Shown: positions 2,778 to 20,193, counted from the first letter of the stretch. The stretch: 64,000 nucleotides of DNA from an uncultured beta proteobacterium (GCA_903886275.1 CAISLN010000080.1:43719-107718), one strand, 5' to 3'. Numbers and translations are program-made. Notes: generated by a model not told the origin, from the letters alone.

Positions 2778-3383
2778 TTATGGCTGATGCCCCTGCAGCG
2801 GGTCTAGGCGTTGGCCGCGCAGCAGGGCCAGCGGGGAGGCCCAGTACTCCTGGATGTTGTGGACAGGGTCCAGCAAAATCTTGCAGCACCAGGCCAGTCC
2901 CCACGCCGGGCTGCGAATCACAAACAGGTGCAGGGTACGAAACAGCAGGCCGCCCGCGCCCAGGGCCAGCCACAGCAGACCCACATCGTGCAGATAGCCC
3001 GACAGGCCCACGGCGGGCGCTATCAGGCCAAGCAGGCTGGGGCTCAAGGCCAAGAGCAGCGGCAGCGACAGCCAGACCGCAATCAGGATGGTCTTGCGCC
3101 GCATGTTAAAGCCCACCTTGATGTCTTCCTTGTGCGCGTAACTGGTGTTGTTGATGGCGTCAAAACCGCGTGGCTCGAAAAAAATATGGCCGCTCTGGCG
3201 CGTCACCATACCCACCGCCCAGCCCACCAGACCTGCGCTCGCCGGGTCTACAAACAGCAGCGCATAGGCCACCAAAAAGCTGATGGCGCTGAGGAGGTGC
3301 AGGCTCTGGTTGATCCGGCACTGGTGGTAATAGCGGTGGTCGTCCCACTGCAGTTGTTGTATTTTTTTCCAGAAATCGCGCAT
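2778..3383 (-). CDS. Mpo1/DUF962-like membrane protein
   Basis: YYHQCRINQSLHLL and RQSGHIFFE His motifs with hydrophobic helices; start at ATG 3383. Confidence 0.6.
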   Translation of the reverse strand: MRDFWKKIQQLQWDDHRYYHQCRINQSLHLLSAISFLVAYALLFVDPASAGLVGWAVGMVTRQSGHIFFEPRGFDAINNTSYAHKEDIKVGFNMRRKTILIAVWLSLPLLLALSPSLLGLIAPAVGLSGYLHDVGLLWLALGAGGLLFRTLHLFVIRSPAWGLAWCCKILLDPVHNIQEYWASPLALLRGQRLDPLQGHQP

Positions 3384-3451
3384 CGGTTTACTCCTTGGGT
3401 CCAGTTGAAAGGCAGTGCGGCTGCACCTGCAAACCAATGTAAAAAGCCCCT

Positions 3452-3469
3452 GTGACAGTGCGGTGAATC
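3452..3469 (-). promoter_or_regulatory. Putative Pho box
   Basis: Minus strand GATTCAC-cgca-CTGTCAC, 11-nt period, 68 nt upstream of the Mpo1-like gene. Confidence 0.45.
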
Positions 3470-3517
3470 GCTCCGTGATGCCTGCATGACTATTGCGCCA
3501 CATCAATGGGGAGGCGT

Positions 3518-3535
3518 CTGACATCAAAGCTTCAT
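3518..3535 (+). promoter_or_regulatory. Putative Pho box
   Basis: CTGACAT-caaa-GCTTCAT; very similar (15/18) to the site at 14197-14214. Confidence 0.65.
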
Positions 3536-3622
3536 GCGGCGAACCTAAGCTGCACTCAGTCGTTCATTTCGAGCGGCGCTGCGAGGTTCCCTTTGAAATA
3601 CCAAGTTGAAAGCGCATACCCC

Positions 3623-3814
3623 ATGCTGGGTCCGCTGCTGCCCGAGGGGGGCGTACGCGAGCTGCGCCTGAATGACCATGCGTTGGCGATTGCCGTTGCA
3701 GCCAAGAGCGTGACCCTGCCCTATGGCCAGGAAATCCGCGTGGTGCACTGCGTCTCGGGGGAGGTTATCTTTCGCAAGACCGCGACCACCATCGCCCCGC
3801 AGGGGGACGAATGA
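3623..3814 (+). CDS. Small hypothetical protein (63 aa)
   Basis: MLGPLLPEGGVRELRLNDHALAIAVAAKSVTLPYGQEIRVVHCVSGEVIFRK; GC-rich codon pattern; downstream of a Pho-like box. Confidence 0.55.
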   Translation: MLGPLLPEGGVRELRLNDHALAIAVAAKSVTLPYGQEIRVVHCVSGEVIFRKTATTIAPQGDE

Positions 3815-3824
3815 TGCGCAGCCT

Positions 3825-4340
3825 TTAAGAAGCGTTGGCGCCGCCTATGTGCACCAGGGCGTGCTGCAGGCTCATGCGGTCCAGCGCAGCGGTGGGCAGT
3901 GCCACAAGCAGCTCAATGCGCCGGCGCAGGTTGGCGGCGGCCGCCACCATGGCGTGGTGTTGGGCCTGTGCATCGCCGCTTGCGGCTGCGGGGTTGTCCA
4001 CATGCCAGTGGGCCGACAGGGGCTGGCCGGGCCAGACCGGGCTCATGTTTTCCGCTGCATCGTCACACACCGTCAAGACATAGTCCATGCGGGGGGCACC
4101 CGGCAGGGCGAATTCGTCCCAGGGCTTGCTGCGCAGTCCCTGGGTTGGAAAGTCATGGGCCTGCAAAAATTCCAGGGCCAGTGGATTGATTTCACCGGTG
4201 GGAAAGCTGCCGGCCGAATAGGCCTTGAAGCGGCCCTTGCCCAGGGCGTTGAGTTGCGACTCTGCAATCAGGCTGCGGGCCGAATTGCAAGTGCACAAGA
4301 AAAGAACATTGAATACTTTTTCATCCATGGGTAACTCCAC
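3825..4340 (-). CDS. arsC: ArsC/LMW-PTP-family protein with atypical cysteines
   Basis: VLFLCTCNSARS P-loop, AYSAGS, SKPWDEF, LTVCDDAAENMSPVWPG, HW; start may be ATG 4328. Confidence 0.75.
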   Translation of the reverse strand: MELPMDEKVFNVLFLCTCNSARSLIAESQLNALGKGRFKAYSAGSFPTGEINPLALEFLQAHDFPTQGLRSKPWDEFALPGAPRMDYVLTVCDDAAENMSPVWPGQPLSAHWHVDNPAAASGDAQAQHHAMVAAAANLRRRIELLVALPTAALDRMSLQHALVHIGGANAS

Positions 4341-4439
4341 ATTAAAGGCCTACCCATTCTATGTGCAGCAAGTGCCCTCGGCCGGCGGGCCGGGGGGTGT
4401 GCAAGCTGCCCGCCGAATGCGGGCATTGTCCAAGTTGCC

Positions 4440-6176
4440 TCAGCTGTAGCTGACCGCAAGGTTGGAGGCTGCGACCGTCACCGTCTTGCCCACCGCGCCG
4501 GCGTAGGTCTTGGACTGGATGCTGTCCACAAACACAAACTCGCCCTTCACATTGGCAGCGCTCACCGTCATCAGCAGGTAGCCCCGGCGCATCGTGTCGG
4601 AGTAGTTGACATCGCTGATCAGGCCCATGCCGGTACCGTTGACGCCCTTGGTGAGCAGGGTGCCGTCAATGGTGGAGGCCAACCCGCCCAGGCCGGCGCT
4701 TTCATAGCCCGGTGCGGTGACCGAGCTGGTGGCGAACTCCACGCCGATCTGGGCCGTGCCGTCCAGCGACTTGAGGTTGTTGAACCAGGCGTTGTGCGAG
4801 TCGCCCGACAGCACCACCAGCTTTTTGCCGGTGGCCTTGACGGTTTGCAGCAGGGTTTCGCGCTGTATGGGGTAGCCATCCCAAGAGTCCATATTGATCG
4901 GGATCTTGGTTTCGGTGCGCGCGCCGCTCAGGTAGGTGGTCACAGCCGTGGTGAAGGCGGCCGTGCCCTGGGCAAAGGCGGCCACAACGGACTGCGGGTA
5001 CCACAGCTTGGCCATGATGTCCTGGTTGCCCACGATCTGCCAGGTGGTGGTGGCGCTGGCAATGTTGCCGGTCAGCCACTTGAACTGGGTGTCGCTGATC
5101 ATCTTGTTGGCTGCATCCGGATAGACGCCGTTGGTGAGCGTCAGTCCGGCCGCATAGTCGGCCCAGTTATAGGGCTGCACCTTGGCATCAAACGGGTCGC
5201 CGTAATAGCCATAGACCTGCTTGGTGCGGCCCTCGATGCGGGTGTCTAGCATGTGCAGACTGAACAGGGTGCCGAAGTCAAACTTGCGGTAGATCTTCAA
5301 GAGGTTGCTGGCATCGGGCGTGCGAATCGGCATCCACTCGTGGTAGGCCTGTGCGGCCACCGCCTTGCGTGCGGACCAACTGCCTTGGGTTGCGATATCG
5401 TGGTTTTGCGCGCCGTCCATATAGGCGTTGTTGGCAAATTCATGGTCGTCCCAGATCGTGATCCAGGGCATCTTGGCGTGCAGGGCCTGCAGGTTGGCGT
5501 CCAGCCGGTACTGCGCGTAACGGCTGCGGTAGTCGCTCAGGCTGACGATGTCGTTGGCCGGCGTGACCACGCGCCCCAGGGTGACCGCAGTGACCTTCGT
5601 GTTGGTGGCATCGGTGTTGCCGAACTTGGCTGGGTCGGAGCCGTATTCGTAAATGTAGTCACCCAGGTGGATGGCAAATTGGGCGCCGGAGTTGAGCGCG
5701 CTGTCGTACACATTGAAGAAGCCGGCCGAATACAGGGTGCAGGAAAACACCGCAAACTTCACCGAGGTGGCCACAGCCGAGGGCAGGGTGCGCGTGTTGC
5801 CCACTGGCGACGCGTTGCCTTGCGCATCGATGAAGCGGTAGACGTAGCTGTTGTCCGGGGCCAGGCCGGTGGCATCGACCTTGGCAGTGTTGCCTGCTGC
5901 CATGCTGGCGGTCACGGTGCCGGCGCTGATGATGTTGGCAAAGGCGGCGTCGCTGGCGACCTGCCAGCTCAGGGCGACATCGCCCTCCTGGTCGGGGCGC
6001 TTGGCATGGGTCCACAGGATGATGCGGTCGGCCAGTGGGTCGCCGCTGGCCACGCCATAAAGGAATTGAGCCGGCGTGGTGCTGGAGCCGCCACCGCCGC
6101 ATGCGGCAAGGCCTGCCGAGCCACCGATGGCGGTAAGCGTGGTGGTCAAAAAATTGCGTCGGGTCGGGTGCGTCAT
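4440..6176 (-). CDS. phoD: Alkaline phosphatase D, Tat-exported lipoprotein
   Basis: TRRNFL Tat motif, LAAC lipobox, GVASGDP, HLGDYIYEY, WDDHEFANN, LDTR, DSWDGY, SGDSHN. Confidence 0.92.
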   Translation of the reverse strand: MTHPTRRNFLTTTLTAIGGSAGLAACGGGGSSTTPAQFLYGVASGDPLADRIILWTHAKRPDQEGDVALSWQVASDAAFANIISAGTVTASMAAGNTAKVDATGLAPDNSYVYRFIDAQGNASPVGNTRTLPSAVATSVKFAVFSCTLYSAGFFNVYDSALNSGAQFAIHLGDYIYEYGSDPAKFGNTDATNTKVTAVTLGRVVTPANDIVSLSDYRSRYAQYRLDANLQALHAKMPWITIWDDHEFANNAYMDGAQNHDIATQGSWSARKAVAAQAYHEWMPIRTPDASNLLKIYRKFDFGTLFSLHMLDTRIEGRTKQVYGYYGDPFDAKVQPYNWADYAAGLTLTNGVYPDAANKMISDTQFKWLTGNIASATTTWQIVGNQDIMAKLWYPQSVVAAFAQGTAAFTTAVTTYLSGARTETKIPINMDSWDGYPIQRETLLQTVKATGKKLVVLSGDSHNAWFNNLKSLDGTAQIGVEFATSSVTAPGYESAGLGGLASTIDGTLLTKGVNGTGMGLISDVNYSDTMRRGYLLMTVSAANVKGEFVFVDSIQSKTYAGAVGKTVTVAASNLAVSYS

Positions 6177-6219
6177 GGGATGGGCCTGTTGGTTGAAGGC
6201 GAAATTTCAACAGCGGCGT

Positions 6220-6237
6220 ATGACGGTTTAAAGAAAA
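6220..6237 (-). promoter_or_regulatory. Putative Pho box for phoD
   Basis: Minus strand TTTTCTT-taaa-CCGTCAT, 43 nt upstream of the phoD ATG. Confidence 0.45.
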
Positions 6238-6273
6238 GGGTTATTGCCGTGTGGGGCTGCAACAGACGCGCGT

Positions 6274-6291
6274 CTGTCACCCAATTTTCAT
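6274..6291 (+). promoter_or_regulatory. Putative Pho box
   Basis: CTGTCAC-ccaa-TTTTCAT, 62 nt upstream of ATG 6354. Confidence 0.55.
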
Positions 6292-6353
6292 CCTGCTGCG
6301 CAATCATGGTGCTGCGGCGCTTTGCCGCGACTCCCCAACTTTGCGAGACAACC

Positions 6354-6653
6354 ATGAATCAAGACACCCAGCATGAGATTGAGATTGTTCCCCCAAGCGA
6401 TGCGTTTGAAGACGAATTTGAAACCATTGGGGATTACCACCGCAAGGCAGCCCACCATTTCGCTGAGGCTGCTAAGCACCACCTGGCCGCTGCCGACGCG
6501 GATGAAGACGGTGACGAAGAGGCGATGGACCTGCACGCCTTCAAGGCCTACCGCCACCAGCTCAATGGCGTGCAGTGCGCAGAGATCGCAGTGATGGAAA
6601 GCGAAACTGACGAGACCGACGAAGCAGGCGAAGAGGCAGCGGTCAGCGCCTAA
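6354..6653 (+). CDS. Small acidic, His-patterned helical protein (99 aa)
   Basis: MNQDTQHEIEIV...HRKAAHHFAEAAKHHLAAADADEDGDEE...; 3' end of track ORF 5253..6653, real start ATG 6354. Confidence 0.7.
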   Translation: MNQDTQHEIEIVPPSDAFEDEFETIGDYHRKAAHHFAEAAKHHLAAADADEDGDEEAMDLHAFKAYRHQLNGVQCAEIAVMESETDETDEAGEEAAVSA

Positions 6654-6914: not shown

Positions 6915-7751
6915 TTAGGCGAGTGCAATGACAGCACCATTTTTTTGGCGTTGCAGGGCGGGCGTGTGGACAAAGGCGATGCTGAGCCAGACCGCGATGC
7001 TGAAATACAGCGACATCCAGAGCACCTCGGTTTTCCAGACCTGCCACTGCTGCGACACCACCCATCGGCCCGAGGTATCGAGCAGGCCCTGGCCCAGGCT
7101 CAGGTAATGGCGTCCACTGGCTTCATCGGCCAGCCAGCGCGACCAGTACATGGGCACATCGACCAAAAACATAAAGGCCACATAGGCAATGCCGGTCAGG
7201 CCCATGGCCAAGAGCATGGGCTTCAAGCGGGCGTTGGCGCGCGGCCACAGCGACAGCAGGCTTGCCACCAGCAGCGCGGCCGCCAGACCCCACAGCGACT
7301 CTTCGACGACATGGCCAATGTTGGAAGTGGTGAGCACCGAATACCAGGAGCAGGTCTCGGCCACCACGATCAGCGGCACCACCGACAGCGCCGCCAAGCG
7401 GGCCGGTCGGCTTTGGGTGACCTGGGAAATTTCGCGCATCAAAAGCGCCCACTGGGTGACAAAACACAGCTCGGCTACGGTGGCTACCGAGCGGCCCACC
7501 AGCACGCTCGACAGCCAGGTGTCAAACAGGCAGATGCGCTGCACATCAAATACCGGCAGCGCCGAGCGGTAGGCGCAGCCCAACACATAACCGGCCGACA
7601 AAAACAATTGCAGGCGGCGCGACGCGTAGACGTCGGCGGGAATTACGGTTTGCTTTTGGCGCAGCACGCGCGCCGAATAGGTGAGCGCGAGCACGTTGGC
7701 CGCGCTGACTGCGCAGAGCAAAAACCACCACACAAAAACTTCTGTTGACAT
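6915..7751 (-). CDS. Hypothetical polytopic membrane protein
   Basis: About 7 hydrophobic segments carrying intramembrane polar residues (ELCF, AETCSWY, GHVVEESLW, VDVPMY). Confidence 0.75.
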   Translation of the reverse strand: MSTEVFVWWFLLCAVSAANVLALTYSARVLRQKQTVIPADVYASRRLQLFLSAGYVLGCAYRSALPVFDVQRICLFDTWLSSVLVGRSVATVAELCFVTQWALLMREISQVTQSRPARLAALSVVPLIVVAETCSWYSVLTTSNIGHVVEESLWGLAAALLVASLLSLWPRANARLKPMLLAMGLTGIAYVAFMFLVDVPMYWSRWLADEASGRHYLSLGQGLLDTSGRWVVSQQWQVWKTEVLWMSLYFSIAVWLSIAFVHTPALQRQKNGAVIALA

Positions 7752-7839
7752 ATGTTTTTCTTCCCTTTTTTTACCAATTATTCTTTAATGTATACGATAC
7801 AGATCGTTTTGCAAGCGGGCATACCCTTGGTCCTGAACA

Positions 7840-7868
7840 ATGTCATGCAACTGCCATGCCGGCATCAC
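7840..7868 (+). promoter_or_regulatory. Putative Pho box array (3 half-sites)
   Basis: ATGTCAT-gcaa-CTGCCAT-gccg-GCATCAC, 35 nt upstream of ATG 7904. Confidence 0.6.
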
Positions 7869-7903
7869 ACAATGGCCCAACACATCCACTCGATCGGACC
7901 TGC

Positions 7904-8122
7904 ATGTACAAAGACGAGACCACCGAAATTGCCGCCACCGGCCTGCGCTACACCTACAAGGAGGCCGGCTCACCCTTTCAGGGAATGGGCAGCAACGGCG
8001 AGGTGCGCAGTTGCCTCAAGTGCGGCCAACACAAGGCCAGGACCCATGGCGCCATCCACCGCTTCCTCGATGGGCTGATGTTTTTCTGCTTCGACTGCCG
8101 CCCCAAAAAGCTGCCGCAGTAG
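7904..8122 (+). CDS. Small zinc-ribbon-like protein (72 aa)
   Basis: Two CxxC pairs: RSCLKCG and FFCFDCRP. Confidence 0.65.
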   Translation: MYKDETTEIAATGLRYTYKEAGSPFQGMGSNGEVRSCLKCGQHKARTHGAIHRFLDGLMFFCFDCRPKKLPQ

Positions 8123-8346: not shown

Positions 8347-10188
8347 TTAAGGCATGGCGCCCAGCAGCAGCGTGGGCAACCAGGTGGCTGTGGCAGGCAG
8401 CAGGGCAATCGCCAGCGTGCCCAAAAATATGGCCAGCAGCGCGGGCAGCACGGCCACGGCCACATAGCGCACCGGCTTGTCAAACATGGCCGAGGCAAAG
8501 TAGATGTTCATGCCGGCCGGTGGGCACAAAAAGCCCAGCTCCATATTGGCCAAAAAGATGATGCCAAAGTGCACCGGGTCTATGCCGTAGCTCATGGCCA
8601 CCGGCAGCAGCAGGGGCACCAGCACCACCAGCGCGGCAAAGATTTCCATCAGTGAGCCGGCGACAAACAAAAACACATTGAGCACCAGCAGGAACACCCA
8701 TTTGTTGGGGATCACGCCCTGCACCCAGGTGATGGCGGCGTCGGGTATGCCTGCGTCAATCAGGTAGTTGGTCAGGCCCAGCGCCATGCCCAGAATCAGC
8801 ATGACGCCACCAATGATTTGGGTGCCGTCCGAGAGGGCACCGCCCAGCTTGCGCCAGCCCAGCTCGCGGTGCGCCAGCACCTGGGTCAGGATGGCATAGG
8901 CTGCGGCGATGGCCGCGCTTTCTGTGGGTGTGGCCAGGCCGCTGACCAAGGCGCCTATGGCCACCAGGGGCGCCATGATTTCCCACTTGGCGGCCCACAG
9001 AGCCGTGGCCACGCGCGGCTGCGCGGCAGCCGATGGTGTGGCAGTGGGGGTTTGCGCCGCAGTGGCAGGGCGCTTCAAGTAGCCGCCAAACACCAGCAAG
9101 AAGGCGACCATGATGCAGGCCGGCAGCAGTCCGGCCAGGAACATGGTGTTGATGGGCACGCGCGCAATGATGGCGTACATGATGAGCGGCACCGAGGGTG
9201 CCAGCAGCACGCCCAGCGCACTGGCGCTGGTGACCAGACTGATACCGCGCTGCTCCGGAAAACCGGCGTTGCGCAACAGCGGCAGCAGCAGTCCGCCCAA
9301 CGCCAGGATGGTCACACCGCTGCCGCCGGTAAAGGCGGTGAAGGCCGAGCACAGCACGGCGCTGGCCACCACGGTGCCGGTGGCGCCCCCGCCAAAGACG
9401 GCCACAAAAACGGTGCCCAGGCGCTGCGCCGCACCGGTGCGCGCAAACACCAGGCCGGCCAGGGTGAACAGGGGCAGGGCCGGCAGCGAGGGGTTGACGG
9501 TGATCTGGTAATGCGACAGCGGGATGGAGGCCAGGGGCAGGGCGTCCTGCCAAAAGAGGGCCAGCGCCAGCGCGCCCAGCACGCTAAAAATAGGTGCACC
9601 GCACAGCAGCGCGGCCAGCAGGGCGATGACGGCCGGCCAGACCGAAAGCGCCGTGCCGTCCAACTGCCAGGCCAGGGCGATGCCTGCGAGCAGGGGCAGC
9701 AGCGCGCCCAAGCTCTTTTGCCAACCTGCCACCAGCCCCTGCGCGCCCAACTGCAGTCCCAGCAACGCAAAGCCCAGCGGCATGCTGGCCTGCAGCCACC
9801 ACACCGGTATGCCATAAGCCAAAATTTGTGCGGCCTGGCGCTCGCTGTCCACCAGACGCCAGCTCGCCATGCACAGCAGGCCGCAGACCAGGGCCGCAAA
9901 CAGCTTGCCATAGCGCTGGCTGGCCTCGGCCAGGCGCGGGTGCGCGCTGGAGACAAAGCCCTTGCCAAAGCTGCTCAGGTGGCCGTGGCGCAGCGCCGCC
10001 ACCGAACCGAACATGGCCATCACCAGGCCCAGGTGCTGCACGATGACGGGCGCGTTTTGCACGCCGCTGCCGGTCCAGGGTCGCACCAAAATTTCAACCA
10101 GCGGTATCAGCGCCATCAGCACCAGTGCGGCGCATGCCAGCAGTTCGTCCAGGCGGCGCAGGCCCTTGAAGGACAACAGCGCGTTCAT
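8347..10188 (-). CDS. TRAP transporter fused small+large permease (DctQM)
   Basis: N-terminal 4-TM DctQ-like part, then DctM motifs (FTGGSG, LLAPSVPLIMY, TPTESAA, PPAG). Confidence 0.9.
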   Translation of the reverse strand: MNALLSFKGLRRLDELLACAALVLMALIPLVEILVRPWTGSGVQNAPVIVQHLGLVMAMFGSVAALRHGHLSSFGKGFVSSAHPRLAEASQRYGKLFAALVCGLLCMASWRLVDSERQAAQILAYGIPVWWLQASMPLGFALLGLQLGAQGLVAGWQKSLGALLPLLAGIALAWQLDGTALSVWPAVIALLAALLCGAPIFSVLGALALALFWQDALPLASIPLSHYQITVNPSLPALPLFTLAGLVFARTGAAQRLGTVFVAVFGGGATGTVVASAVLCSAFTAFTGGSGVTILALGGLLLPLLRNAGFPEQRGISLVTSASALGVLLAPSVPLIMYAIIARVPINTMFLAGLLPACIMVAFLLVFGGYLKRPATAAQTPTATPSAAAQPRVATALWAAKWEIMAPLVAIGALVSGLATPTESAAIAAAYAILTQVLAHRELGWRKLGGALSDGTQIIGGVMLILGMALGLTNYLIDAGIPDAAITWVQGVIPNKWVFLLVLNVFLFVAGSLMEIFAALVVLVPLLLPVAMSYGIDPVHFGIIFLANMELGFLCPPAGMNIYFASAMFDKPVRYVAVAVLPALLAIFLGTLAIALLPATATWLPTLLLGAMP

Positions 10189-11189
10189 TTGGCGGGCAGG
10201 GCGCGGTAGGCCTTCACCTGCTTGAACACCTCGTCAAAGGTGTCGGCCGGCACCATGGTGCCGCGTATGCGCGGGTAGAGCGACTCGGCCAGCGCGTTCC
10301 ATTCCTGCATCTCTGCGGCATTGGGTTTGTGCACGATGAGGCCACGCTTTTTCATGGCCTCTACCGCCTCATCGACTTCGCGCCGCGCTTGCGCCCGCAT
10401 TTGGGCACCGGCCTTGTCGCCGGCTGCGCGCAGGGCTTTCTGGGCAGACGGCTCCATCGCGTCCCAGGCCTTGGCGGTGACCACCATGGCGCCGACTATG
10501 GGCGACCAGTTGATCTCCAGCATGTGGGGCGCGGTGTTGTAGACCTGGCTGGCCAGCGCAAAGTAGGGCGTGGAGGGCACCACATTGATCATGCCGGTCT
10601 GAATCGAGGGCAGGATGTCGGCGGTCTCCAGCGGCACTGGGGTGTAGCCCAGGCTCTTCATGATGGACTGCTGCTCCACCTCCGAGCCCCAGGCAAAGAA
10701 CTTCATGCGCTTGTAGTCATCGGGGCGCACGGCGGCCTCCTTGGAGAAAAAGCGCACCCAGCCGGCGTCGCCCCAGGCCAGCACCACAAAGCCCTTGTCG
10801 AGAAATTTCTTCTCCATCGCCGGGCGCATTTTTTCGCGCACATAGTCCAGCTCTTCCCAGCTGCGAAACAGCAGCGGCAGGTTTTGCAGGGCGCTGATCG
10901 AAGGCTCGATTTCGCGCAGCCCCACCACCGACAAGAGCGCGCCTTGGAGTTGGCCTATGCGCATGCGCCTTGCCATCTCGGCCTCGCCGCCCTGGCTGCC
11001 GTCCGGGTAGACCAGGTACTTGGAGGCGCCGCCCTGGGTCGCACGCCAGGCCTCGCCCATCTCCAGCAGTTGGCGGTGGTAGAGCGAATTCTTGGGCGCC
11101 AAGGTGCCCACGCGCAGTTGCATATCAGCGCCGTGCGCCGACAAAGTGGTGATCAGGCAAAGCAGCAGGGTGGCAATCAGTTTGGGCAT
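10185..11189 (-). CDS. TRAP substrate-binding protein DctP (TatP type)
   Basis: Signal peptide, GTLAPKNS, GSQGGE, RMRIGQLQG; overlaps the permease start. Confidence 0.9.
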   Translation of the reverse strand: MPKLIATLLLCLITTLSAHGADMQLRVGTLAPKNSLYHRQLLEMGEAWRATQGGASKYLVYPDGSQGGEAEMARRMRIGQLQGALLSVVGLREIEPSISALQNLPLLFRSWEELDYVREKMRPAMEKKFLDKGFVVLAWGDAGWVRFFSKEAAVRPDDYKRMKFFAWGSEVEQQSIMKSLGYTPVPLETADILPSIQTGMINVVPSTPYFALASQVYNTAPHMLEINWSPIVGAMVVTAKAWDAMEPSAQKALRAAGDKAGAQMRAQARREVDEAVEAMKKRGLIVHKPNAAEMQEWNALAESLYPRIRGTMVPADTFDEVFKQVKAYRALPAK

Positions 11190-11224
11190 GGAGTTCTTGC
11201 GGGTGAGGGACAGGCTTGCAGGTC

Positions 11225-12139: not shown

Positions 12140-12228
12140 GGATTGTGAGCCAGCAAGGGCCTTGGGGGTCGCGTGCCAGCTGCTGCAGGGCTGCGGCTGG
12201 TTCAAGGCGCCCAATGTAGCCCCGCTGC

Positions 12229-12246
12229 ATGAAGCTTCGGTGACAG
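12229..12246 (-). promoter_or_regulatory. Putative Pho box for the TPAT operon
   Basis: Minus strand CTGTCAC-cgaa-GCTTCAT, 89 nt upstream of the tatT ATG. Confidence 0.65.
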
Positions 12247-12387: not shown

Positions 12388-14136
12388 GTGACCTTTTTGC
12401 AAAAACTGACCATACGCGCACGCCTGCTGTGCGCCTTTTTGGCCTCTGTGCTGATCACGTTGTTCGTGGGGCTGATGGGCATCAACACCATCTCTGAACT
12501 CAGCGCCGCCACCGACGACATGTACCAAAACAACCTCATCCCCATCAAGGACGTGGCCAATGCCAATATGCAGGCCATCTACCTGAACCGCAGCCTGTAT
12601 GACTACATCATCGAGGAGCAAAAATCCGGCATGGACAAGATCAAGCTGCGCATCGATGAGCACCACAAGCAGTACAGCCAGCTGATGGATAAGTACCGCG
12701 CCACCGAACTGACGCCTGCAGAAAAAGAGCTCATCAACAAGGTGGATGCCGAGTGGCCGCCCTACCTGGCTGCGGCCGAAAAGGTGATGAAGCTCTCTTA
12801 TTCCGACCAGAACAAGGAGGCCTATGCGGCCATGAACGAGGAGGCCAAGAAGACCTTCCAGGTGCTCGATGACCACTTGAGTGAACTGGTGGATTTGAAC
12901 GCCAAGATTGGCGAGACCACCAACAAGGAGTCGGCCGCGCGGGGTGCGAGCATTCGCACGTACACCATAGGCGTCATCGTGCTTGCGGCGGCTGTTTGCA
13001 TTGGCTTGGGTCTGGTCATTACGGCCAGCATTACCCGCCCTCTGCAAGACGGCATCCTGTTCTCCAATGCGGTGGCGGCGGGCGACCTGACGGCCAGCGT
13101 CGATGCCCAGGGCCGTGACGAGGTGTCGCAGCTGATGCGGGCCCTGTTGGCCATGCGAGATGGCCTGGTCAAGGTGGTGTCCACGGTGCGCGAGGGCTCT
13201 GAGAGCGTGGCGAGCGCCAGCTCCCAAATTGCCCAGGGCAATAGCGATCTGTCGGCGCGCACCGAGCAGCAGGCCAGCGCGCTGCAAGAGACCGCCTCCT
13301 CGATGGAACAACTCAGCTCCAGCGTCAAACAAAACGCCGACTCCGCACGCCAGGCCAATCAGCTGGCCACCAGTGCCAGTTCGGTGGCCCAAAAGGGCGG
13401 GCAGGTGGTGGGCCATGTGGTGGAGACCATGAAGGGCATCAACGAGTCGAGCCGCAAAATAGCCGACATCATCAGCGTCATTGACGGCATTGCCTTTCAG
13501 ACCAATATCCTGGCGCTCAATGCGGCGGTGGAAGCGGCCCGCGCCGGTGACCAGGGGCGCGGCTTTGCGGTAGTGGCCTCCGAGGTGCGTGCGCTGGCCG
13601 GGCGCAGCGCCGAGGCGGCCAAGGAGATCAAGGGCCTGATCAATGCCAGTGTCGAGCGCGTCGAGCAGGGCACCACCCTGGTGGACGAAGCCGGCGAGAC
13701 CATGACCGAAGTGGTGGGCAGCATCAAGCGGGTCACCGACATCATGGGAGAAATCAGTTCGGCCAGCGCCGAGCAGGCCACCGGTGTGGCACAGGTGGGC
13801 GAAGCGGTCACCCAGATGGACTCTGCAACCCAGCAAAATGCGGCGCTGGTGGAAGAAATGGCGGCCGCAGCAAAGAGTCTGAACGCGCAGGCCGGCGATC
13901 TGGTGGATACGGTCGCCGTGTTCAAGCTCGGCGCGCAAGACGGTATTGTGCGGGCCCAGGTGCGCGCTGCGCCGCCCAAGGCGGCACAAGTGAAGAACGA
14001 CGAGCGCCGCGCTGGCGCCAAGCCAGCAACACGCAAGCCTGCGGCCGCGCCCAGTGCCCTGGCGGCACCCAAGCCCGCAGCGCCAGCGTCCAAGGTTGCG
14101 ACCGGTGCCGCTGATGGAGACTGGGAAAGCTTCTAA
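12388..14136 (+). CDS. Methyl-accepting chemotaxis protein (4HB sensor, HAMP)
   Basis: GGGAGG RBS then GTG; two TM helices; signalling motif [34 protein letters not shown]; C-terminal pentapeptide DWESF. Confidence 0.93.
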
Positions 14137-14196: not shown

Positions 14197-14236
14197 TTGA
14201 CATCAAATCTTCATGGGACTGCCATGAACGGGTCAC
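14197..14236 (+). promoter_or_regulatory. Putative Pho box array (4 half-sites)
   Basis: TTGACAT-caaa-TCTTCAT-ggga-CTGCCAT-gaac-GGGTCAC upstream of olsB-plcP. Confidence 0.7.
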
Positions 14237-14259
14237 GCCGGATTTCGACAATTTCCGGT

Positions 14260-15075
14260 ATGAACACATTGCACGAACCCTCCCAACAAGCGCGCGACAA
14301 GGTTGTTGCGCAGGCGGTCACCCGCATCGAAGTTTCCAAGACCGCCCTGCACGGCATCGAAGTGTCCTGGGCCAAGCACCAAGACGAGGTGCGCGCTGCG
14401 CAAAAGCTGCGCTTTGATGTGTTTGCCGGAGAGATGGGCGCGCGCCTGAACACCTCGGTGGCAGGCCACGACGTGGACCTGTTTGACAATTACTGCGAGC
14501 ATCTGCTGGTGCGCGACCAGGCCACCGGCCAGGTGATTGGCACCTACCGCGTGCTGACCCCCGTGCAGGCCAAGCGCGTGGGCAGCACCTACAGCGATAC
14601 CGAGTTCGATCTGACCCGTCTGCGCATGCTGCGCGAGCGCATGGTGGAGCTGGGGCGCAGTTGCGTGCACCCGGACCACCGCCACGGCGGCGTCATCATG
14701 GCGCTGTGGGGGGCGCTTGCCGAGTTCATGACGCGCAACCAGCTCGACACCATGATTGGTTGCGCCAGCATTCCCATGCTGCACAACGGCGTGGTCAGCG
14801 GCGATGTGGCGGCCAGCATCTGGCGCCAGTTGCAGGCCACCCATCTGGCACCGATTGAATACCATGTGCGCCCGCGCCTGCCGCTGCCGGTGGAGCGCCT
14901 AGACAGCAGCCTGTGCGTGGAAGCACCGGCGCTGATCAAGGGCTATTTGCGCCTGGGTGCCAAGGTGCTGGGCGCGCCGGCCTGGGACCCGGATTTCAAT
15001 ACCGCCGATCTGCCCATGCTGATGCGCATTGCCGATCTGCCCTCGCGTTACCGCAAGCATTTTTTGGGCGCTTGA
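14260..15075 (+). CDS. OlsB-like GNAT amino-acid N-acyltransferase (ornithine/amino lipid synthesis)
   Basis: AQKLRFDVF, DVDLFDNYCEHL, GTYRVL, ELGRSCVHPDHR, PALIKGYLRLGA, DPDFNTAD. Confidence 0.8.
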   Translation: MNTLHEPSQQARDKVVAQAVTRIEVSKTALHGIEVSWAKHQDEVRAAQKLRFDVFAGEMGARLNTSVAGHDVDLFDNYCEHLLVRDQATGQVIGTYRVLTPVQAKRVGSTYSDTEFDLTRLRMLRERMVELGRSCVHPDHRHGGVIMALWGALAEFMTRNQLDTMIGCASIPMLHNGVVSGDVAASIWRQLQATHLAPIEYHVRPRLPLPVERLDSSLCVEAPALIKGYLRLGAKVLGAPAWDPDFNTADLPMLMRIADLPSRYRKHFLGA

Positions 15076-15951
15076 ATGCGCGGCGCATCGGAGGCATTGA
15101 TGGGCGCCTTGATGGGGGCTGACGCAGACCCCGACGAGGACAGCCCAAAGCGGCGCTACCGCGCGGTGTTCATCTCCGACATCCATCTGGGCACGGCAGG
15201 TTGCCAGGCCGATGCGCTGCTGGACTTTATGAAGCACCATTCCAGTGACTACCTGTACCTGGTGGGTGACATCGTGGACGGCTGGCAGTTGCGCCGGCGT
15301 TGGTTCTGGCCACAGGCACACAACGATGTGGTGCAAAAGCTCTTGCGCCGCGCCCGCAAGGGCTGTCATGTGGTGTTTGTGCCGGGCAACCACGATGAGT
15401 TTGCGCGCGGCTTTGTGGGCCACAAGTTTGGCGACATCGCGGTGCAGCGCGACACCGTGCACACCACTGCCCTGGGTGTGTCGCTGTGGGTGACGCATGG
15501 AGATTATTTTGACGGCGTGATCCAGTGCGCCAAATGGCTGGCCTATCTGGGCGACAACGCCTATGAGTTCACGCTCAAGCTCAACCGCAGCTTGAACAGT
15601 TTGCGCGCCCGCATGGGCCTGCCCTATTGGTCGCTGTCGCAATACCTCAAGGGCAAGGTCAAGAGCGCGCTCAACTATGTGACCGATTTTGAAGTGGCCG
15701 TGGCCCGCGAGGCCAAGCACCGAGGCCATGACGGCGTGGTCTGTGGCCATATCCACCGCGCCGAGATGCGTGACATCAACGGCATTTTGTATTGCAACGA
15801 TGGCGACTGGGTGGAGAGCCGCAGCGCCCTGGTGGAGCATCTGGACGGCCGCTTGGAGATCGTGTTCTGGGATGAACTGATCGCCAAGGATGCCAAGGAC
15901 GCCGCAGCAGCAGCGCTGGTGCCGCTGCTGGGCTTAAGCGCAAGCGCATAA
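15076..15951 (+). CDS. PlcP-like metallophosphoesterase (phospholipase C; often annotated UDP-2,3-diacylglucosamine hydrolase)
   Basis: ISDIHLG, LVGDIVDGW, WPQAHNDVVQK, PGNHDE, HGD, CGHIH, NDGDWVES; starts immediately after the olsB-like stop. Confidence 0.75.
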   Translation: MRGASEALMGALMGADADPDEDSPKRRYRAVFISDIHLGTAGCQADALLDFMKHHSSDYLYLVGDIVDGWQLRRRWFWPQAHNDVVQKLLRRARKGCHVVFVPGNHDEFARGFVGHKFGDIAVQRDTVHTTALGVSLWVTHGDYFDGVIQCAKWLAYLGDNAYEFTLKLNRSLNSLRARMGLPYWSLSQYLKGKVKSALNYVTDFEVAVAREAKHRGHDGVVCGHIHRAEMRDINGILYCNDGDWVESRSALVEHLDGRLEIVFWDELIAKDAKDAAAAALVPLLGLSASA

Positions 15952-15989: not shown

Positions 15990-16601
15990 TCAAACCGCCT
16001 TGGGAGGGCGTCCGGTCTTCAGGTTGGGAATGGCAGCGATGGCGGCCAGGAAGGCGGGGTTGGCCAGGGCGGTCAGGGCCTTGATGCCAGCGCGGATCAG
16101 CTCGGTCTTCTTGACCGGCACGCCCAACTTGCCAGCGCGCAGCTTCATGGCCTCCAACGCTTCGTATTCGAACTTGGGGATGGAGATGCTGTCGCGCACC
16201 ATCTTGATCTTCTTGTCCTTGGCTTCCTTGCTGTCCTTGACTGGCTTGGGCAACTTGGCTGCCTGTGGCTTTGCAACCGGCTTGGCTTTGGCTGCGGACT
16301 TCTCAGCCGGCTTGGCAGCGACTTTTGCAACCGTCTTTGCATCAGGCGTTGCAACTACCTTGGCATCGGGCTTGGCTGCGGACTTCTCGGCGGGCTTGGC
16401 AGCGGCTTTTGCATCAGGCTTTGCAAGCGGCTTGGCTGCGGCCTTGGCGACGACTTTTTTGGCCTTGGCCGGGGCAGCGGGTTTGGCGCTGCTGGGTGTC
16501 GAAGCGGCTATGGTGGCTTTGGCTTCTGGCTTGGCAGCGGCAGGTGCTGCAGCGGCGATGGCTTCGGTGCTGGATTGGAGGTTTTGCATGACGGTGTCCA
16601 T
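15990..16601 (-). CDS. Histone H1-like AKP-repeat protein with C-terminal ribbon-helix-helix-like domain
   Basis: AAKP/AKPDAK repeats, then KMVRDSISIPKFEYEALEAMKLRA...KKTELIRAGIKAL. Confidence 0.7.
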   Translation of the reverse strand: MDTVMQNLQSSTEAIAAAAPAAAKPEAKATIAASTPSSAKPAAPAKAKKVVAKAAAKPLAKPDAKAAAKPAEKSAAKPDAKVVATPDAKTVAKVAAKPAEKSAAKAKPVAKPQAAKLPKPVKDSKEAKDKKIKMVRDSISIPKFEYEALEAMKLRAGKLGVPVKKTELIRAGIKALTALANPAFLAAIAAIPNLKTGRPPKAV

Positions 16602-16720: not shown

Positions 16721-16729
16721 CCGCTGGTC

Positions 16730-18775
16730 CTACTTCTTGCGTGTGGCTGGCAAAAACCCCGCTGGCAGTACCACGCCGTTGGCCGCCTGTGCCAGTTTGA
16801 AGAACACATCGGTGTTGTCCTGCACGCCGGTAAAGCTCCAGGCGCCCGGGCCAAAGGCCGACAAGGGAATGTCGGTGGCGGTGTGCACGGCGCTGTCGCC
16901 CGGCACCTGTCCGGTCACCAAAAATTTGCCCTCGGTGTCACGGTTCATGGGGCCTGCCGGATACACCGACAGAGGCTCTTTTTTCACAAAGGGCTGCTGG
17001 CTGTCTTGCAGCGGTCTGTCATTGGTGCGGTAGTCTTCATAGCGGTCGGCATTGGCGCCGTAGCCCACCAAGATGCGGTTATCGATGTCGGTGGTTTCCG
17101 GGTAGCCATCAGCGGCCATTTTGTATTTGGGGAAACCAGCCTGCTCGTAAATGCCCACCACCTTGTCGCGCAAGTTGGCCACGCCACCCTCGCGCACCAG
17201 CTCTTGCAGGCGCGCATCGGTCACGCGCGAGCCGCCAATCAGGGCCGCGCCCGAGCACTCATGGTCGGCGGTGACGATGACCAGCGTGTCGCCGTGCAGC
17301 TTGGCAAAGGCCTGCACGCGGGCGATGGCGCGGTCGAACTCAATGGTGTCTAGCAACCAGCGTTCGGTGTCCATGTTGTGCGCCTGCTTGTCAATCGATG
17401 CCCCTTCGACCATCAGCACAAAGCCCTTCTTCTGGTGCTCCAGCACGGCCAGGGCCTTGTCGGTCATCTCATCGAGCATGGGCTGGTCGGGCAGGCCGTA
17501 GTCATCGACCACGCGTCCGTTGATACCGCGCGCCTTGTTGCGCCGACCGTCAATCTTGTCCAGCGCCACATTCATATTGGAGTGGGCAAACAGGCCCAGC
17601 AGTCGCTCGGTCTTGGCCGGGTTGATGGCATCCAGCGCGGTCTTGTCGGCGGCGTAAGTGAAGCCGGCCGATTGGAATTCGCCCATCAGGTCGCGCTCCT
17701 TGTCCATGGCGCCGGGGGCTGCGCCCCAGCGCTTGACGATCTCGCTGGTGTGCAGATCGGTGGCCGAGAAGGCGTAGTCGGTCTTGTCGCCACGGGCCGA
17801 GCCGGGCATGTTGGCCGGCACAAACCATTTGCGCCCGCCACCCATCAGCACCGTCAGGCCGGTGAGCTTTCGGTCGTCCAAAAATTGGTCCACGATGCCG
17901 GTGCCCGCGCCGCGTGCGCTGGTGTGCACCGCGTTGGCGGCCGGGGTGGCATCAAACACATCGGCCGTGGTCACCAGGCCCAGCGCCTTGCCCTGGGTGC
18001 GGTGCAGGTATTCGCTCAGGTACTCGATGCGCGGGTTGTCAAAGGGGTCGGTGGTGTCGTCGGGGAACACGCCCTCTTCGTTGTTGTTGTTCTTGTTGCC
18101 CGAGGCATAGCTGCTCATGCCGGGGGCCGAGTCGGTCACCACCGAGTTGAGCGAGGAGGTCTTCACCATGCCGGTCACCGGAAAGGTGTCCATGGCCAGC
18201 GGCGTGATGGTCTTGCCCTGTGCATAGCCGCCCGCGACGATGCGCGCGCCGGTGCGCTGGGCCGCACCCATGCCGTCGCCCAGCATGATGATGATGTTCT
18301 TGACCTTCTGGCCACCGGCGAGCAGGGGCACGACTTCGAAGTTGCCGCTGGCGCTGACCGATTGGCCGTCGCTTTGTGTGGCCGTCACCGTCACGGTATG
18401 CACGCCGGGCTTGCTGGCGCTGAAGGCACGCACTGTGGCGATAGTGGCGTTGGTGGGCACGCTAGCCAGGCAGCCCGTTGCACAACTGCGCAGCGCTACC
18501 GTCGCGTCCACTGTCTTGCCGTCGATGGTGAAACGGGCGGCTGTGATGGTCTTGCCGGCCTCGTCGGGGCGCAGCGTGGCCTGCAGGTCAAAGCGCTGAC
18601 CGGGCAAAAAGCGGGCGATCAGCGGTGCGGCATTGCCCGTTGAAAACAGTTCGCTGGGCGGAGTCAGGCGGCTGACCGTGGGGGCTGCGATGGCGTTGTT
18701 CGAGGCGATGGCCAGCAGCGTGGCCGAGGCCAGCAAGGACAGCCTGGCGCTTTTCAAATAAGGGGTGTGTGTCAT
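16730..18775 (-). CDS. PhoA-family alkaline phosphatase with N-terminal Ig-like extension
   Basis: Signal peptide, IMLGDGMG, VTDSAPG (catalytic Ser), DATPAA, MVEGASIDKQAH, VTADHEC, VHTATD. Confidence 0.88.
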   Translation of the reverse strand: MTHTPYLKSARLSLLASATLLAIASNNAIAAPTVSRLTPPSELFSTGNAAPLIARFLPGQRFDLQATLRPDEAGKTITAARFTIDGKTVDATVALRSCATGCLASVPTNATIATVRAFSASKPGVHTVTVTATQSDGQSVSASGNFEVVPLLAGGQKVKNIIIMLGDGMGAAQRTGARIVAGGYAQGKTITPLAMDTFPVTGMVKTSSLNSVVTDSAPGMSSYASGNKNNNNEEGVFPDDTTDPFDNPRIEYLSEYLHRTQGKALGLVTTADVFDATPAANAVHTSARGAGTGIVDQFLDDRKLTGLTVLMGGGRKWFVPANMPGSARGDKTDYAFSATDLHTSEIVKRWGAAPGAMDKERDLMGEFQSAGFTYAADKTALDAINPAKTERLLGLFAHSNMNVALDKIDGRRNKARGINGRVVDDYGLPDQPMLDEMTDKALAVLEHQKKGFVLMVEGASIDKQAHNMDTERWLLDTIEFDRAIARVQAFAKLHGDTLVIVTADHECSGAALIGGSRVTDARLQELVREGGVANLRDKVVGIYEQAGFPKYKMAADGYPETTDIDNRILVGYGANADRYEDYRTNDRPLQDSQQPFVKKEPLSVYPAGPMNRDTEGKFLVTGQVPGDSAVHTATDIPLSAFGPGAWSFTGVQDNTDVFFKLAQAANGVVLPAGFLPATRKK

Positions 18776-18794
18776 GGTGTTGGAGGCAGGTTGT

Positions 18795-19331
18795 TCAGTG
18801 GATGTGTTGCTGGGCGTGCAGGTAGTTGCTGACTTCAAAGGCATTCATGCCGCGTGTGGCTGCGTTGCCCATTTGCAGGCGCACCCAGGAGACGCGGCCA
18901 TCGGACTCTTCGAGGCGGCCCACGCTGAGTACACCGCTGAGCTCGATCAGGCCGCGCTGGTAGGGAATGGCAAAGCCCTGTTGTTCGGGGTCGAGGTAGA
19001 CCATGGCCCAGGCGGCGGGCAGGTCATCTGCGTCGCCATCGGCTTGCTCACTCATGCGCACCGGGCGCGGCGTGAGCATGAATTTCCCCAGTGCCGCTCG
19101 CTCCTGCTGCACCATGTAGCCGCTCAGGCGCACCAGCTTGCCGTCGGCCTGCAGCAGGGCCGGTGTCAGCGCAAGACCCTTGTTGCCCAGGGGCAGTTGG
19201 AAGAAATCGGCAAAGCGCAGCAGCGTCGGTGCGGTGGTGGTGGCCGGCAGGGGCTGCGCGAAGGTGGGCGTGGCCATGGCCAGCAGCAAAAAGGCGGCGC
19301 GCCAGAGGGCAGGGGGTCGCAATTTCACCAT
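18795..19331 (-). CDS. Exported DUF3299-like (OB-fold-like) protein
   Basis: Signal peptide; ADGKLVRLSGYMV...KFMLTPRP pattern; 20 nt upstream of the phosphatase start. Confidence 0.55.
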   Translation of the reverse strand: MVKLRPPALWRAAFLLLAMATPTFAQPLPATTTAPTLLRFADFFQLPLGNKGLALTPALLQADGKLVRLSGYMVQQERAALGKFMLTPRPVRMSEQADGDADDLPAAWAMVYLDPEQQGFAIPYQRGLIELSGVLSVGRLEESDGRVSWVRLQMGNAATRGMNAFEVSNYLHAQQHIH

Positions 19332-19335
19332 GGCC

Positions 19336-20133
19336 TTAGCTCGCCTGCACCAGCGCCAGCAGCTGGGCGCGGATTTTTCCGTGCGCGTGCAGGGCCAGCG
19401 ATTTGCGCGTGTGGCCCAGTGCCACCACGCGCTCGCCTAGATGCACGCGTGCCTCTATGGTGGAGCTGGCCATCACCCGTTTGAGCGATTGCGCCAGCGT
19501 CATGTCGCCTATGAAGTGCGCCGCCGTTGCGGCCTCTCCGGTGGCACTGTCGATGTAGTGCAGCGTCAGCAGTTGCACCTCGCAGCGGGCGCGGATGGCG
19601 CTTTCAAAGATGTTGGCGTGGAAGCTGCCCAGTGCGCTGCCATCGCTGCTGGTGCCCTCGGGAAACACCACGACCGCATAGCCCTGCGCAATCGCACTGG
19701 CCGTGTCTTCCACCATGGCGCGTGCCGAGCGGGCGGAGGCGCGGTCCACAAAAATAGTGGCGCAGGCATGGGCCAAATAGCCCACCACCGGCCAGTGCCG
19801 CACTTCACGTTTGGCCACAAAGGCGCCGGGAATGAGCGACTGCAGCACCAGCACGTCCAGCCAGGACAGGTGGTTGCACACCACCAGGCCGGCAAAGTCA
19901 GGCGGCGCCGGCTGGCTGCACTGCACCTTGATGTGGAGCGTGGCGAGCACCGCCCTGGCCCAGCGCTGAATCGCCGCCAGCCTTTGCGCCTTGTTCCAAT
20001 CCGCAAAACGCAGTGCGACCAAAAGCGTTCCGTGGCCGAAGTGGGCCGCAATGCGCAAGGCCTTGTAGGCATCGCTCAGGCCGGCAGAGACGCGTGACAT
20101 GCGTGGGGGCAGTGCGAGCAGGGGGACTGGCAT
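19336..20133 (-). CDS. Lysophospholipid acyltransferase, PlsC/OlsA family
   Basis: CNHLSWLD, FVAKREV, IFVDR, VFPEGTSS; GGAGG 7 nt before ATG 20133. Confidence 0.88.
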   Translation of the reverse strand: MPVPLLALPPRMSRVSAGLSDAYKALRIAAHFGHGTLLVALRFADWNKAQRLAAIQRWARAVLATLHIKVQCSQPAPPDFAGLVVCNHLSWLDVLVLQSLIPGAFVAKREVRHWPVVGYLAHACATIFVDRASARSARAMVEDTASAIAQGYAVVVFPEGTSSDGSALGSFHANIFESAIRARCEVQLLTLHYIDSATGEAATAAHFIGDMTLAQSLKRVMASSTIEARVHLGERVVALGHTRKSLALHAHGKIRAQLLALVQAS

Positions 20134-20175
20134 CGAAACGCCTCCGATCAAAAGCCGCAAGCGTAGAGGGCTTGT

Positions 20176-20193
20176 GTGACAGCAGGGTGTCAG
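20176..20193 (-). promoter_or_regulatory. Putative Pho box for the acyltransferase-DUF3299-phosphatase operon
   Basis: Minus strand CTGACAC-cctg-CTGTCAC, 42 nt upstream of ATG 20133. Confidence 0.7.

Follow-up and report, generated by a model that had tools for sequence, protein, structure and literature searches.

In the established mechanism of the phosphate-starvation (Pho) response, PhoR phosphorylates PhoB, and PhoB acts at a Pho box that substitutes for the −35 element of its target promoters. Several phosphate-starvation genes may also share one region, as in the marine phosphorus (P)-acquisition islands of Prochlorococcus and SAR11. Pho regulon members have been predicted for Sinorhizobium meliloti (Yuan et al. 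2006, as cited in PMC7814305). PhoB-controlled lipid remodeling through PlcP/Agt and OlsB/OlsA is described in S. meliloti, marine heterotrophs, Pseudomonas aeruginosa, and Burkholderia, with olsB and plcP being known phosphate-starvation genes there (PMC7814305, PMC4796936, PMC8528852, PMC13700237). Here, we analyze a 64,000-nt stretch of DNA (the window; contig C80:43719-107718) from the 5.19-Mb, 132-contig genome of an uncultured freshwater Comamonadaceae-like betaproteobacterium, with Rhodoferax, Curvibacter, Limnohabitans, and other betaproteobacteria of Comamonadaceae type as its closest relatives in public data. Judged from its sequence, the interval at 1.5-20.2 kb is very probably a dense cluster of PhoB-dependent promoters within a larger one that spans ≥50 kb of the contig. 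The general reading is ordinary, as Pho regulons and their boxes are well known from textbooks and both olsB and plcP are established members. The conserved additions that we predict are a TPAT transporter (a TRAP transporter associated with the TPR protein TatT) and a membrane protein family, g201, that distantly resembles Mpo1.

The promoters of this region share much with the proteobacterial Pho regulon as described for Escherichia coli pstS and phoA and for S. meliloti. Direct 7-nt repeats with a TGTCA core recur every 11 nt, the box stands in for the −35 element some 10 nt upstream of the −10 hexamer, the targets include pstS, phosphatase, and phosphonate genes, and PhoB, PhoR, and PhoU are all encoded. 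Two features differ, namely a second half-site that often reads TTTCA or CTTCA and an unusual local density. Relative to described Pho regulons, the predicted membership of a TPAT transporter, an Mpo1-like family, and small open reading frames (ORFs) is likewise distinctive.

Boxes were scored with two matrices. The pstS matrix was derived de novo by expectation maximization (EM) on the pstS upstream regions of 29 other genera in the family and is independent of the window. The EM motif, TGTCAY-N5-TGTCAYA, was recovered upstream of pstS in all 29 genera, and the pstS promoter of the present genome (contig C50) carries the same motif (box ATGTCACATCCTTGTCAC). The broader family matrix was trained on the pstS, TPAT, and g201 promoters of relatives. 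These matrices replaced two that had been built from the genome's own upstream regions and were dropped because one, threshold-driven and iterative, collapsed onto an unrelated repeat and the other, based on the top-N regions, separated forward from reverse matches by only ~2:1. Elsewhere in the genome, the top matches of the pstS matrix precede pstS, a PhoX phosphatase gene, a PHO4-family phosphate transporter gene, a CorA-like gene, and phnCDE/phnZ-like genes; we consider the matrix validated because pstS, PhoX, the PHO4-family transporter, and the phnCDE/phnZ-like genes stand at the top. Nine promoters were found within 19 kb. Their consensus is an 18-nt Pho box, YGTCAY-N5-YKTCAYR, in place of the −35 element, with the −10 hexamer 9 nt downstream, and each of the nine boxes is built from at least two direct repeats of 7 nt (TGTCA core) that follow one another at 11-nt spacing (scores in bits):

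1562-1594, plus strand: phnW promoter; box TGTCACCCGCGTGAAACA at 1562-1579, 9-nt spacer, −10 TATGCT at 1589-1594 (pstS matrix 7.8, family matrix 11.7, −10 score 0.1)
3436-3468, minus strand: g201 promoter; box ATTCACCGCACTGTCACA at 3451-3468, −10 TACATT at 3436-3441 (pstS matrix 9.0, family matrix 13.5, −10 score 8.6)
3519-3551, plus strand: 63-aa ORF promoter; box TGACATCAAAGCTTCATG, −10 TAAGCT at 3546-3551 (pstS matrix −1.4, family matrix 9.8, −10 score 3.2)
6204-6236, minus strand: phoD promoter; weak box TTTCTTTAAACCGTCATA at 6219-6236, −10 TGAAAT at 6204-6209 (pstS matrix 4.5, family matrix 5.6, −10 score 1.5)
6275-6307, plus strand: acidic His-rich ORF promoter; box TGTCACCCAATTTTCATC, poor −10 AATCAT (pstS matrix 8.8, family matrix 19.3, −10 score −3.8)
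7841-7873, plus strand: g72 promoter; box TGTCATGCAACTGCCATG plus a third half-site, GCATCAC, −10 CACAAT at 7868-7873 (pstS matrix 12.6, family matrix 14.1)
12213-12245, minus strand: TPAT operon promoter; box TGTCACCGAAGCTTCATG at 12228-12245, −10 TACATT at 12213-12218
14198-14252, plus strand: olsB-plcP promoter; four in-phase half-sites at 14198-14237, −10 GACAAT at 14247-14252 serving the proximal pair (three overlapping 18-mers, family matrix 10.5, 8.3, and 7.3)
20160-20192, minus strand: acylT-g178-phoA promoter; box TGACACCCTGCTGTCACA at 20175-20192, −10 TACGCT at 20160-20165 (pstS matrix 13.9, family matrix 13.1, −10 score 4.3)

Eight of these sites had been listed in the initial annotation, and all eight are present to within ±1 nt (our register begins one base later, at the T of TGTCA). 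They had been placed 23-89 nt from start codons, which agrees with distances of 68, 87, 43, 62, 35, 89, 23, and 42 nt to the best-supported starts. The site before phnW, at 1562-1579 on the plus strand, had been overlooked, and the sites given as 3518 and 14197, said to share 15/18 nt, in fact share 16/18. The remark that such sites cease after 20.2 kb is confirmed by the pstS matrix, which places no upstream region at 20.3-64 kb in the top 10%. Inside the 2778-20193 span, g278 and a gene for a methyl-accepting chemotaxis protein (MCP) have no box. The notion that similar boxes (3519 and 14198; acylT and a box on contig C51) are copies of one repeat was rejected, as their flanks are unrelated.

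In principle, such sites could have arisen by chance, the repeat being short and degenerate and the intergenic DNA AT-richer, with the gene content inviting a Pho reading. The degeneracy of the half-sites and the ~2:1 ratio of the own-genome matrix lend this explanation some color; the counts speak strongly against it, and we regard it as highly improbable. Among 2,779 upstream regions ranked with the pstS matrix, acylT falls in the top 0.4%, g72 in the top 0.5%, g201 in the top 1.1%, phnW and TAtT each in the top 1.5%, phoD in the top 3.2%, and olsB in the top 3.3%. A Mann-Whitney test with this matrix gave p = 9e-5. The initial annotation had proposed scoring the region with a pstS-trained matrix against shuffled intergenic DNA, and the outcome favors its reading: the 2,039 intergenic nt hold 6 sites at ≥7 bits under the pstS matrix and 8 at ≥9 bits under the family matrix, 500 dinucleotide shuffles give an expectation of 0.18 in each case, and 0/500 shuffles matched the observed count with either matrix.

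The position of the −10 hexamer offers a second line of evidence, since the hexamer at fixed spacing played no part in choosing the sites. The pstS promoters of relatives (28/28) all place a TAnAnT hexamer exactly 9 nt beyond their 18-nt box. A −10-like hexamer occurs at this spacing in 8/9 window promoters, the acidic His-rich ORF being the exception, and six of the eight promoters first listed have −10 scores of 3.2-9.7 bits. Only 1.1% of random positions reach ≥2 bits. A combined model of box, 9-nt spacer, and −10 gave 25 matches in 5.19 Mb, of which 18 are intergenic and correctly oriented and 4 lie in coding DNA (90% of the genome). Four of the 18 fall at 1.4-20.3 kb of the window, against 0.07 expected (p = 5e-7), and 8 matches fall in C80:12-64 kb, against 0.18 expected (p = 4e-12). 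The TPAT promoter scores 27.8 and ranks second in the genome, behind pstS.

The machinery to read such promoters is encoded elsewhere in the assembly. The pstSCAB-phoU-phoB-phoR locus is intact on contig C50, and PhoB (TIGR02154, 317 bits, cut-off 296), PhoU (TIGR02135, 216 bits, cut-off 130), and PhoR (TIGR02966, 398 bits, cut-off 334) exceed the curated cut-offs. In many genera of the family (G004-G055), olsB lies 5-10 kb from pstS, and the lipid-remodeling genes usually adjoin the pst-pho locus; in the present fragmented assembly that locus and the cluster are on different contigs. The cluster had first been described as a ~17-kb island. It is not a closed unit of that size: it starts at phnW (1.5 kb) at the latest and continues ~30 kb upstream of the window start. 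Altogether, 14/52 correctly placed boxes of ≥10 bits fall in one 52-kb stretch, so that about a quarter of the predicted boxes are physically concentrated in 1% of the genome.

We then counted, for orthologous upstream regions in relatives, those with a box of ≥8 bits under the pstS matrix:

g201: forward strand in 24/30 genera, 40-110 nt from the start; reverse strand in 7/30
TPAT, 78 related loci: forward in 44/78; reverse in 11/78; coding controls 0/71
TPAT, evenly sampled independent genera: forward in 5/6
olsB: forward in 18/29; reverse in 5/29
phoD: forward in 8/20; reverse in 0/20
g72: forward in 2/30 family homologs; reverse in 0/30

Conservation of the boxes in relatives, a check proposed in the initial annotation, holds for TPAT, g201, olsB, and phoD and fails for g72. 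Nearly all TPAT boxes in relatives are followed by TAnAnT at 9 nt, and the four-half-site olsB array recurs in many relatives. Persistence of boxes in orthologous promoters with diverged flanks is a further argument against chance; in L010, the closest relative, the spacers of g201, the 63-aa ORF, and g72 have diverged around boxes and −10 hexamers that are conserved. L010 also keeps the gene order of the acylT-g178-phoA operon. An apparent alignment of the acylT promoter with L010 was discarded as misleading, the L010 stretch being the 3′ end of a fasciclin-like gene.

Around TPAT in other betaproteobacteria, olsB-plcP, olsA-like, g201, g72, phoD, and phoA recur in shuffled order, and 27/80 TPAT loci have at least one of olsB, plcP, olsA-like, g201, phoD, and phoA within ~10 kb. 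As in the marine P islands, phosphate-starvation genes gather in one region here. Unlike those islands, the region does not have atypical base composition (60-66% GC, against ~61% for the genome), and its genes recur together in relatives with their order shuffled. Horizontal transfer of the cluster, judged by composition, was rejected because its GC content is near the genome mean. The region looks like a conserved regulon neighborhood, as opposed to a mobile or strain-variable island.

Several points temper the assignment of the sites to PhoB. For TPAT and g201, independent scores come from the pstS matrix and not from the family matrix. Under the strict pstS matrix, low scores are obtained for some boxes (phoD 4.5 bits, 63-aa ORF −1.4, first olsB pair 0.7), and the acidic His-rich ORF has a poor −10. 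Genes were called with our own simple caller, with starts also taken from alignments, and some box-to-start distances are approximate. The genome also encodes >15 full-length OmpR/PhoB-type paralogs, one of which could share half-site specificity. A different OmpR-family regulator might read some of the sites, so that part of the cluster would answer another signal. The candidate class is TGWCAYCRAnnCTTCAYG, found at 3519, 12228, 14198, and C80:35922/35980; its members share spacer and second-half features and reach only −1.4 to 7.7 bits with the pstS matrix. Against this, the first half-site is the canonical TGTCAY, the same variant class precedes phnCDE and the phnZ-like gene, which are classic Pho targets, and the TPAT and g201 boxes of relatives grade continuously in their second half-site from TGTCA to TTTCA and keep the pstS-like −10 spacing. 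We consider a second regulator unlikely.

A more serious alternative limits PhoB control to the strong boxes (g72, acylT, TPAT, g201, and phnW), with the weak ones (phoD, the 63-aa ORF, the acidic His-rich ORF, and the distal olsB pair) decayed or without function and the small ORFs not members, or not genes at all. Beyond the low pstS-matrix scores and the poor −10 of the acidic His-rich ORF, it can draw on the near absence of both small ORFs from relatives and on an antisense ORF that competes with the acidic His-rich frame. The phoD and olsB boxes are nevertheless positionally conserved in relatives, the 63-aa ORF retains its box and −10 in L010, and the acidic His-rich ORF has a homolog in G055 that is 65% identical and has a candidate box of its own. 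We therefore hold a strong-box-only cluster to be possible, though doubtful, and retain the nine-promoter assignment.

The genes of the region are as follows:

157-1476, minus strand: corA-like gene
1634-2734, plus strand: phnW, 2-aminoethylphosphonate--pyruvate transaminase (NCBIfam NF010006, 553 bits, cut-off 296)
2778-3383, minus strand: g201, membrane protein of 201 aa that carries a His motif and is distantly Mpo1-like (DUF962)
3623-3814, plus strand: 63-aa ORF
3825-4340, minus strand: low-molecular-weight phosphatase/ArsC-like protein (PF01451, 1.5e-13; TIGR02691, 55 bits, below the cut-off)
4440-6176, minus strand: phoD, PhoD-type alkaline phosphatase (PF09423, 308 bits; PhoD_N, 91 bits)
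6354-6653, plus strand: acidic His-rich ORF, 99 aa (from its translation)
6915-7751, minus strand: g278, membrane protein
7904-8122, plus strand: g72, a 72-aa four-Cys (CxxC...CxxC) Zn-ribbon protein
8347-12139, minus strand: TPAT operon, comprising dctQM (8347-10188), dctP (10185-11258), and TAtT/TatT (11225-12139)
12388-14136, plus strand: MCP
14260-15075, plus strand: olsB-like N-acyltransferase (PF13444, 119 bits)
15076-15951, plus strand: PlcP-like metallophosphoesterase (PF00149, 49 bits)
15990-16601, minus strand: g203, after a 128-nt gap from phoA
16730-18775, minus strand: phoA (PF00245, 247 bits)
18795-19331, minus strand: g178, secreted protein
19336-20133, minus strand: acylT, olsA-like acyltransferase (PF01553)
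20274-22457, plus strand: FUSC-family gene

In the mechanism we propose, scarce phosphate would lead PhoR to phosphorylate PhoB, and PhoB dimers would bind the direct repeats that replace the −35 element and recruit sigma-70 RNA polymerase. Nine units would be switched on: phnW; g201; the 63-aa ORF; phoD with the ArsC-like gene; the acidic His-rich ORF; g72; TPAT; olsB-plcP; and olsA-like-g178-phoA. PhoD, PhoA, and PhnW, together with neighboring phosphonate genes, would release phosphate from esters and phosphonates, and the ArsC-like protein may handle arsenate imported along with phosphate. The OlsB-, OlsA-, and PlcP-like proteins would exchange phospholipids for P-free ornithine lipids and diacylglycerol-derived lipids, and TPAT and the Mpo1-like g201 would probably handle a lipid-like substrate. 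PhoB binding, low-phosphate induction, and the TPAT and g201 substrates are what we infer from the sequence. The initial annotation had likewise read the region as one PhoB-controlled module, a view supported computationally by the pstS-type motif, the intact phoB/phoR locus, the 9-nt −10 spacing, and the gene identities.

The lipid-remodeling genes are named with some caution. Neither acyltransferase attains its NCBIfam cut-off (OlsB NF052554, 165 bits against 350; OlsA NF052553, 122 bits against 300), so we refer to the genes as olsB-like and olsA-like and treat the head group as putative. The olsA-like gene is the only such copy in the genome. The PlcP-like protein shows weak LpxH similarity alongside its PF00149 match and is co-operonic with olsB behind the Pho box. 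A GT4 glycosyltransferase is the usual partner of PlcP. The arrangement matches known lipid remodeling in that olsB-like and PlcP-like genes lie behind Pho boxes, with an olsA-like gene nearby and a boxed GT4 gene on the contig. It departs from it in that olsB and plcP form one operon behind a four-half-site array and the olsA-like gene heads an operon with phoA. Junctions within acylT-g178-phoA overlap or are 20 nt apart, and the ArsC-like gene, which follows phoD in the same orientation after 99 nt, is probably co-transcribed with it. The proximal olsB −10 ends 7 nt ahead of the ATG at 14260; either this mRNA has no leader or translation truly begins farther downstream, and alignments with relatives cover the protein only from residue 25-33 onward.

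The TPAT label given to the transporter in the initial annotation proved apt, as a TatT-family T component, a DctP-type protein, and DctQ/DctM are encoded in one operon. The TAtT component matches PF16811 (169 bits, cut-off 26.5; 1.2e-49), the DctP-type TatP matches PF03480, and the fused DctQM matches PF06808 and PF04290; the genes share a strand and either overlap or adjoin one another. Among solved structures, TatT is closest to Treponema pallidum Tp0956 (4e-21) and TatP to Tp33 (3u65, 2.5e-20) and Tp0957 (4di3, the same protein, 9e-20). The T. pallidum TPAT (Tp0956/Tp0957) has the same T, P, and fused QM components in one operon. The betaproteobacterial operon differs in having a PhoB-type promoter and a setting among lipid-remodeling and phosphatase genes. 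Binding of long-chain fatty acids has been shown for the TatT of Enhygromyxa salina (Zhai et al. 2023, as summarized in PMC11713862), and among TPAT proteins a hydrophobic, fatty-acid-like ligand is known only from those of E. salina and T. pallidum (PMC11713862); that account of TatT makes no mention of phosphate.

Among the sampled genera of the family, TPAT is present in 6/120 others (G019, G050, G057, G096, G113, and G119). All six carry g201, which occurs in 30/120 (p = 1.6e-4), and three of them (G119, G096, and G113) have the two genes within 4-12 kb of each other, accompanied by olsB and g72. At 1e-12, no TatT homologs were detected in a phylum-wide sample of 400 genomes. Within the literature open to our searches, neither TPAT nor DUF962/Mpo1 was described as part of a bacterial Pho regulon, and no expression study of this lineage turned up; we regard TPAT as a predicted, apparently undescribed Pho-regulon member. 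TPAT is without an established physiological role, and a conserved predicted PhoB promoter over dozens of betaproteobacterial genera, with related loci in Rhodoferax, Limnohabitans, Malikia, and Ralstonia, points, along with repeated linkage to lipid-remodeling genes, to low phosphate as a candidate condition for its role.

The g201 family comprises >7,400 proteins, with all homologs named "hypothetical," and is by the same token a predicted, apparently undescribed phosphate-starvation gene family. A paralog lies at C80:25235-25876. Against PF06127 (gathering threshold 24 bits), g201 scores 15.3 bits and the paralog 21.1 bits, both below threshold; 15/15 family members match this profile weakly, all sub-gathering, with a best E of 1.4e-5. 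g201 is thus at most a distant Mpo1/DUF962 relative. The Mpo1 family acts as a 2-hydroxy-fatty-acid dioxygenase, and the g201 family has invariant His, Asp, and Glu motifs. AlphaFold2 models g201 as a helical membrane protein (predicted local distance difference test score, pLDDT, of 86), and a fold search with this model against the PDB returned no match better than E = 3.

A tentative extension joins these two additions: TPAT and the Mpo1-like g201 might form a PhoB-controlled lipid-handling module with OlsB, PlcP, and OlsA, acting on one shared lipid-like substrate. TPAT would then import or recycle a long-chain (hydroxy) fatty acid, or a lyso-/phospholipid as a P source, and the Mpo1-like protein, as an Fe(II)-type enzyme, would process the acyl chain of the substrate. 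If true, this would give TPAT, unexplained since 2012, a physiological role and provide a tractable model in cultivable Betaproteobacteria.

The predicted recruitment of further genes into the module, as initially suggested, is conserved for the Mpo1-like gene (24/30) and for TPAT. It does not extend to the Zn-ribbon gene beyond a narrow lineage (2/30), and the 63-aa and acidic His-rich ORFs are rare. g72 has homologs in 30/121 family genomes, with the motif GLRYxSKxxGSPF...SCxxCGxH, and its predicted Pho-box control is lineage-specific. The 63-aa ORF had no family match in profile searches and has a homolog in 1/80 related loci. The acidic His-rich ORF has a homolog in 1/120 other family genomes (2/121 with the window's own), namely that of G055, where identity is at the protein level and the candidate box scores 9.6 bits. 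For g178, the earlier description as DUF3299-like was set aside, as there is no Pfam match (E up to 10) and no NCBIfam match. g203 combines ~130 residues of Ala/Lys/Pro-rich repeats (histone-H1-like) with a C-terminal domain of 70 residues that is conserved. Its gene follows phoA here, and several relatives have it close to plcP or TPAT. Close to g278, a 31-nt block, TTAATGTATACGATACAGATCGTTTTGCAAG (window 7785-7815), is near-identical in L010 with diverged flanks. Its minus strand has the form TTGCAA-N16-TACATT, the spacer containing the inverted repeat ACGAT-N4-ATCGT; instead of a Pho box, the block probably represents a sigma-70 promoter and an operator serving g278.

Upstream of the window on the same contig, boxed promoters precede the following:

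TonB-dependent receptor; PAP2 acid phosphatase; metallophosphoesterase-like ORF
GT4 glycosyltransferase, ~22 kb upstream of the window start and ~37 kb upstream of plcP
Second Mpo1-like paralog; another MCP
phnZ-like oxygenase facing phnCDE; TIGR03364 oxidoreductase; phnX

In the phosphonate cluster at C80:35337-40674 (~3-8 kb upstream of the window), the phnZ-like HD oxygenase gene faces phnC-phnD-phnE, the TIGR03364 FAD oxidoreductase gene, and phnX, with two strong back-to-back Pho boxes at C80:35922-35997; phnW lies apart, inside the window. Farther upstream, C80:21320-25907 holds the boxed GT4 glycosyltransferase gene, a phosphatidylserine-decarboxylase-like gene, a class-III aminotransferase gene, and the Mpo1-like paralog with its own box, which together may represent an undescribed lipid head-group pathway. 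On another contig, a CorA-like gene is preceded by a Pho box that ranks among the genome's best (C51:4875-4892, TGTCACCCTGCTGTCACA), differing by one base from the acylT box at 20175-20192, with unrelated flanks; CorA-like genes also recur beside TPAT in relatives. Beyond the cluster, a 1801-aa ORF (window 24463-29868, minus strand) has a sacsin-type N-terminal domain and a weak NOV_C match; it lies in a segment (24-30 kb) of 55-57% GC, against 62-67% around it, and was probably acquired horizontally.

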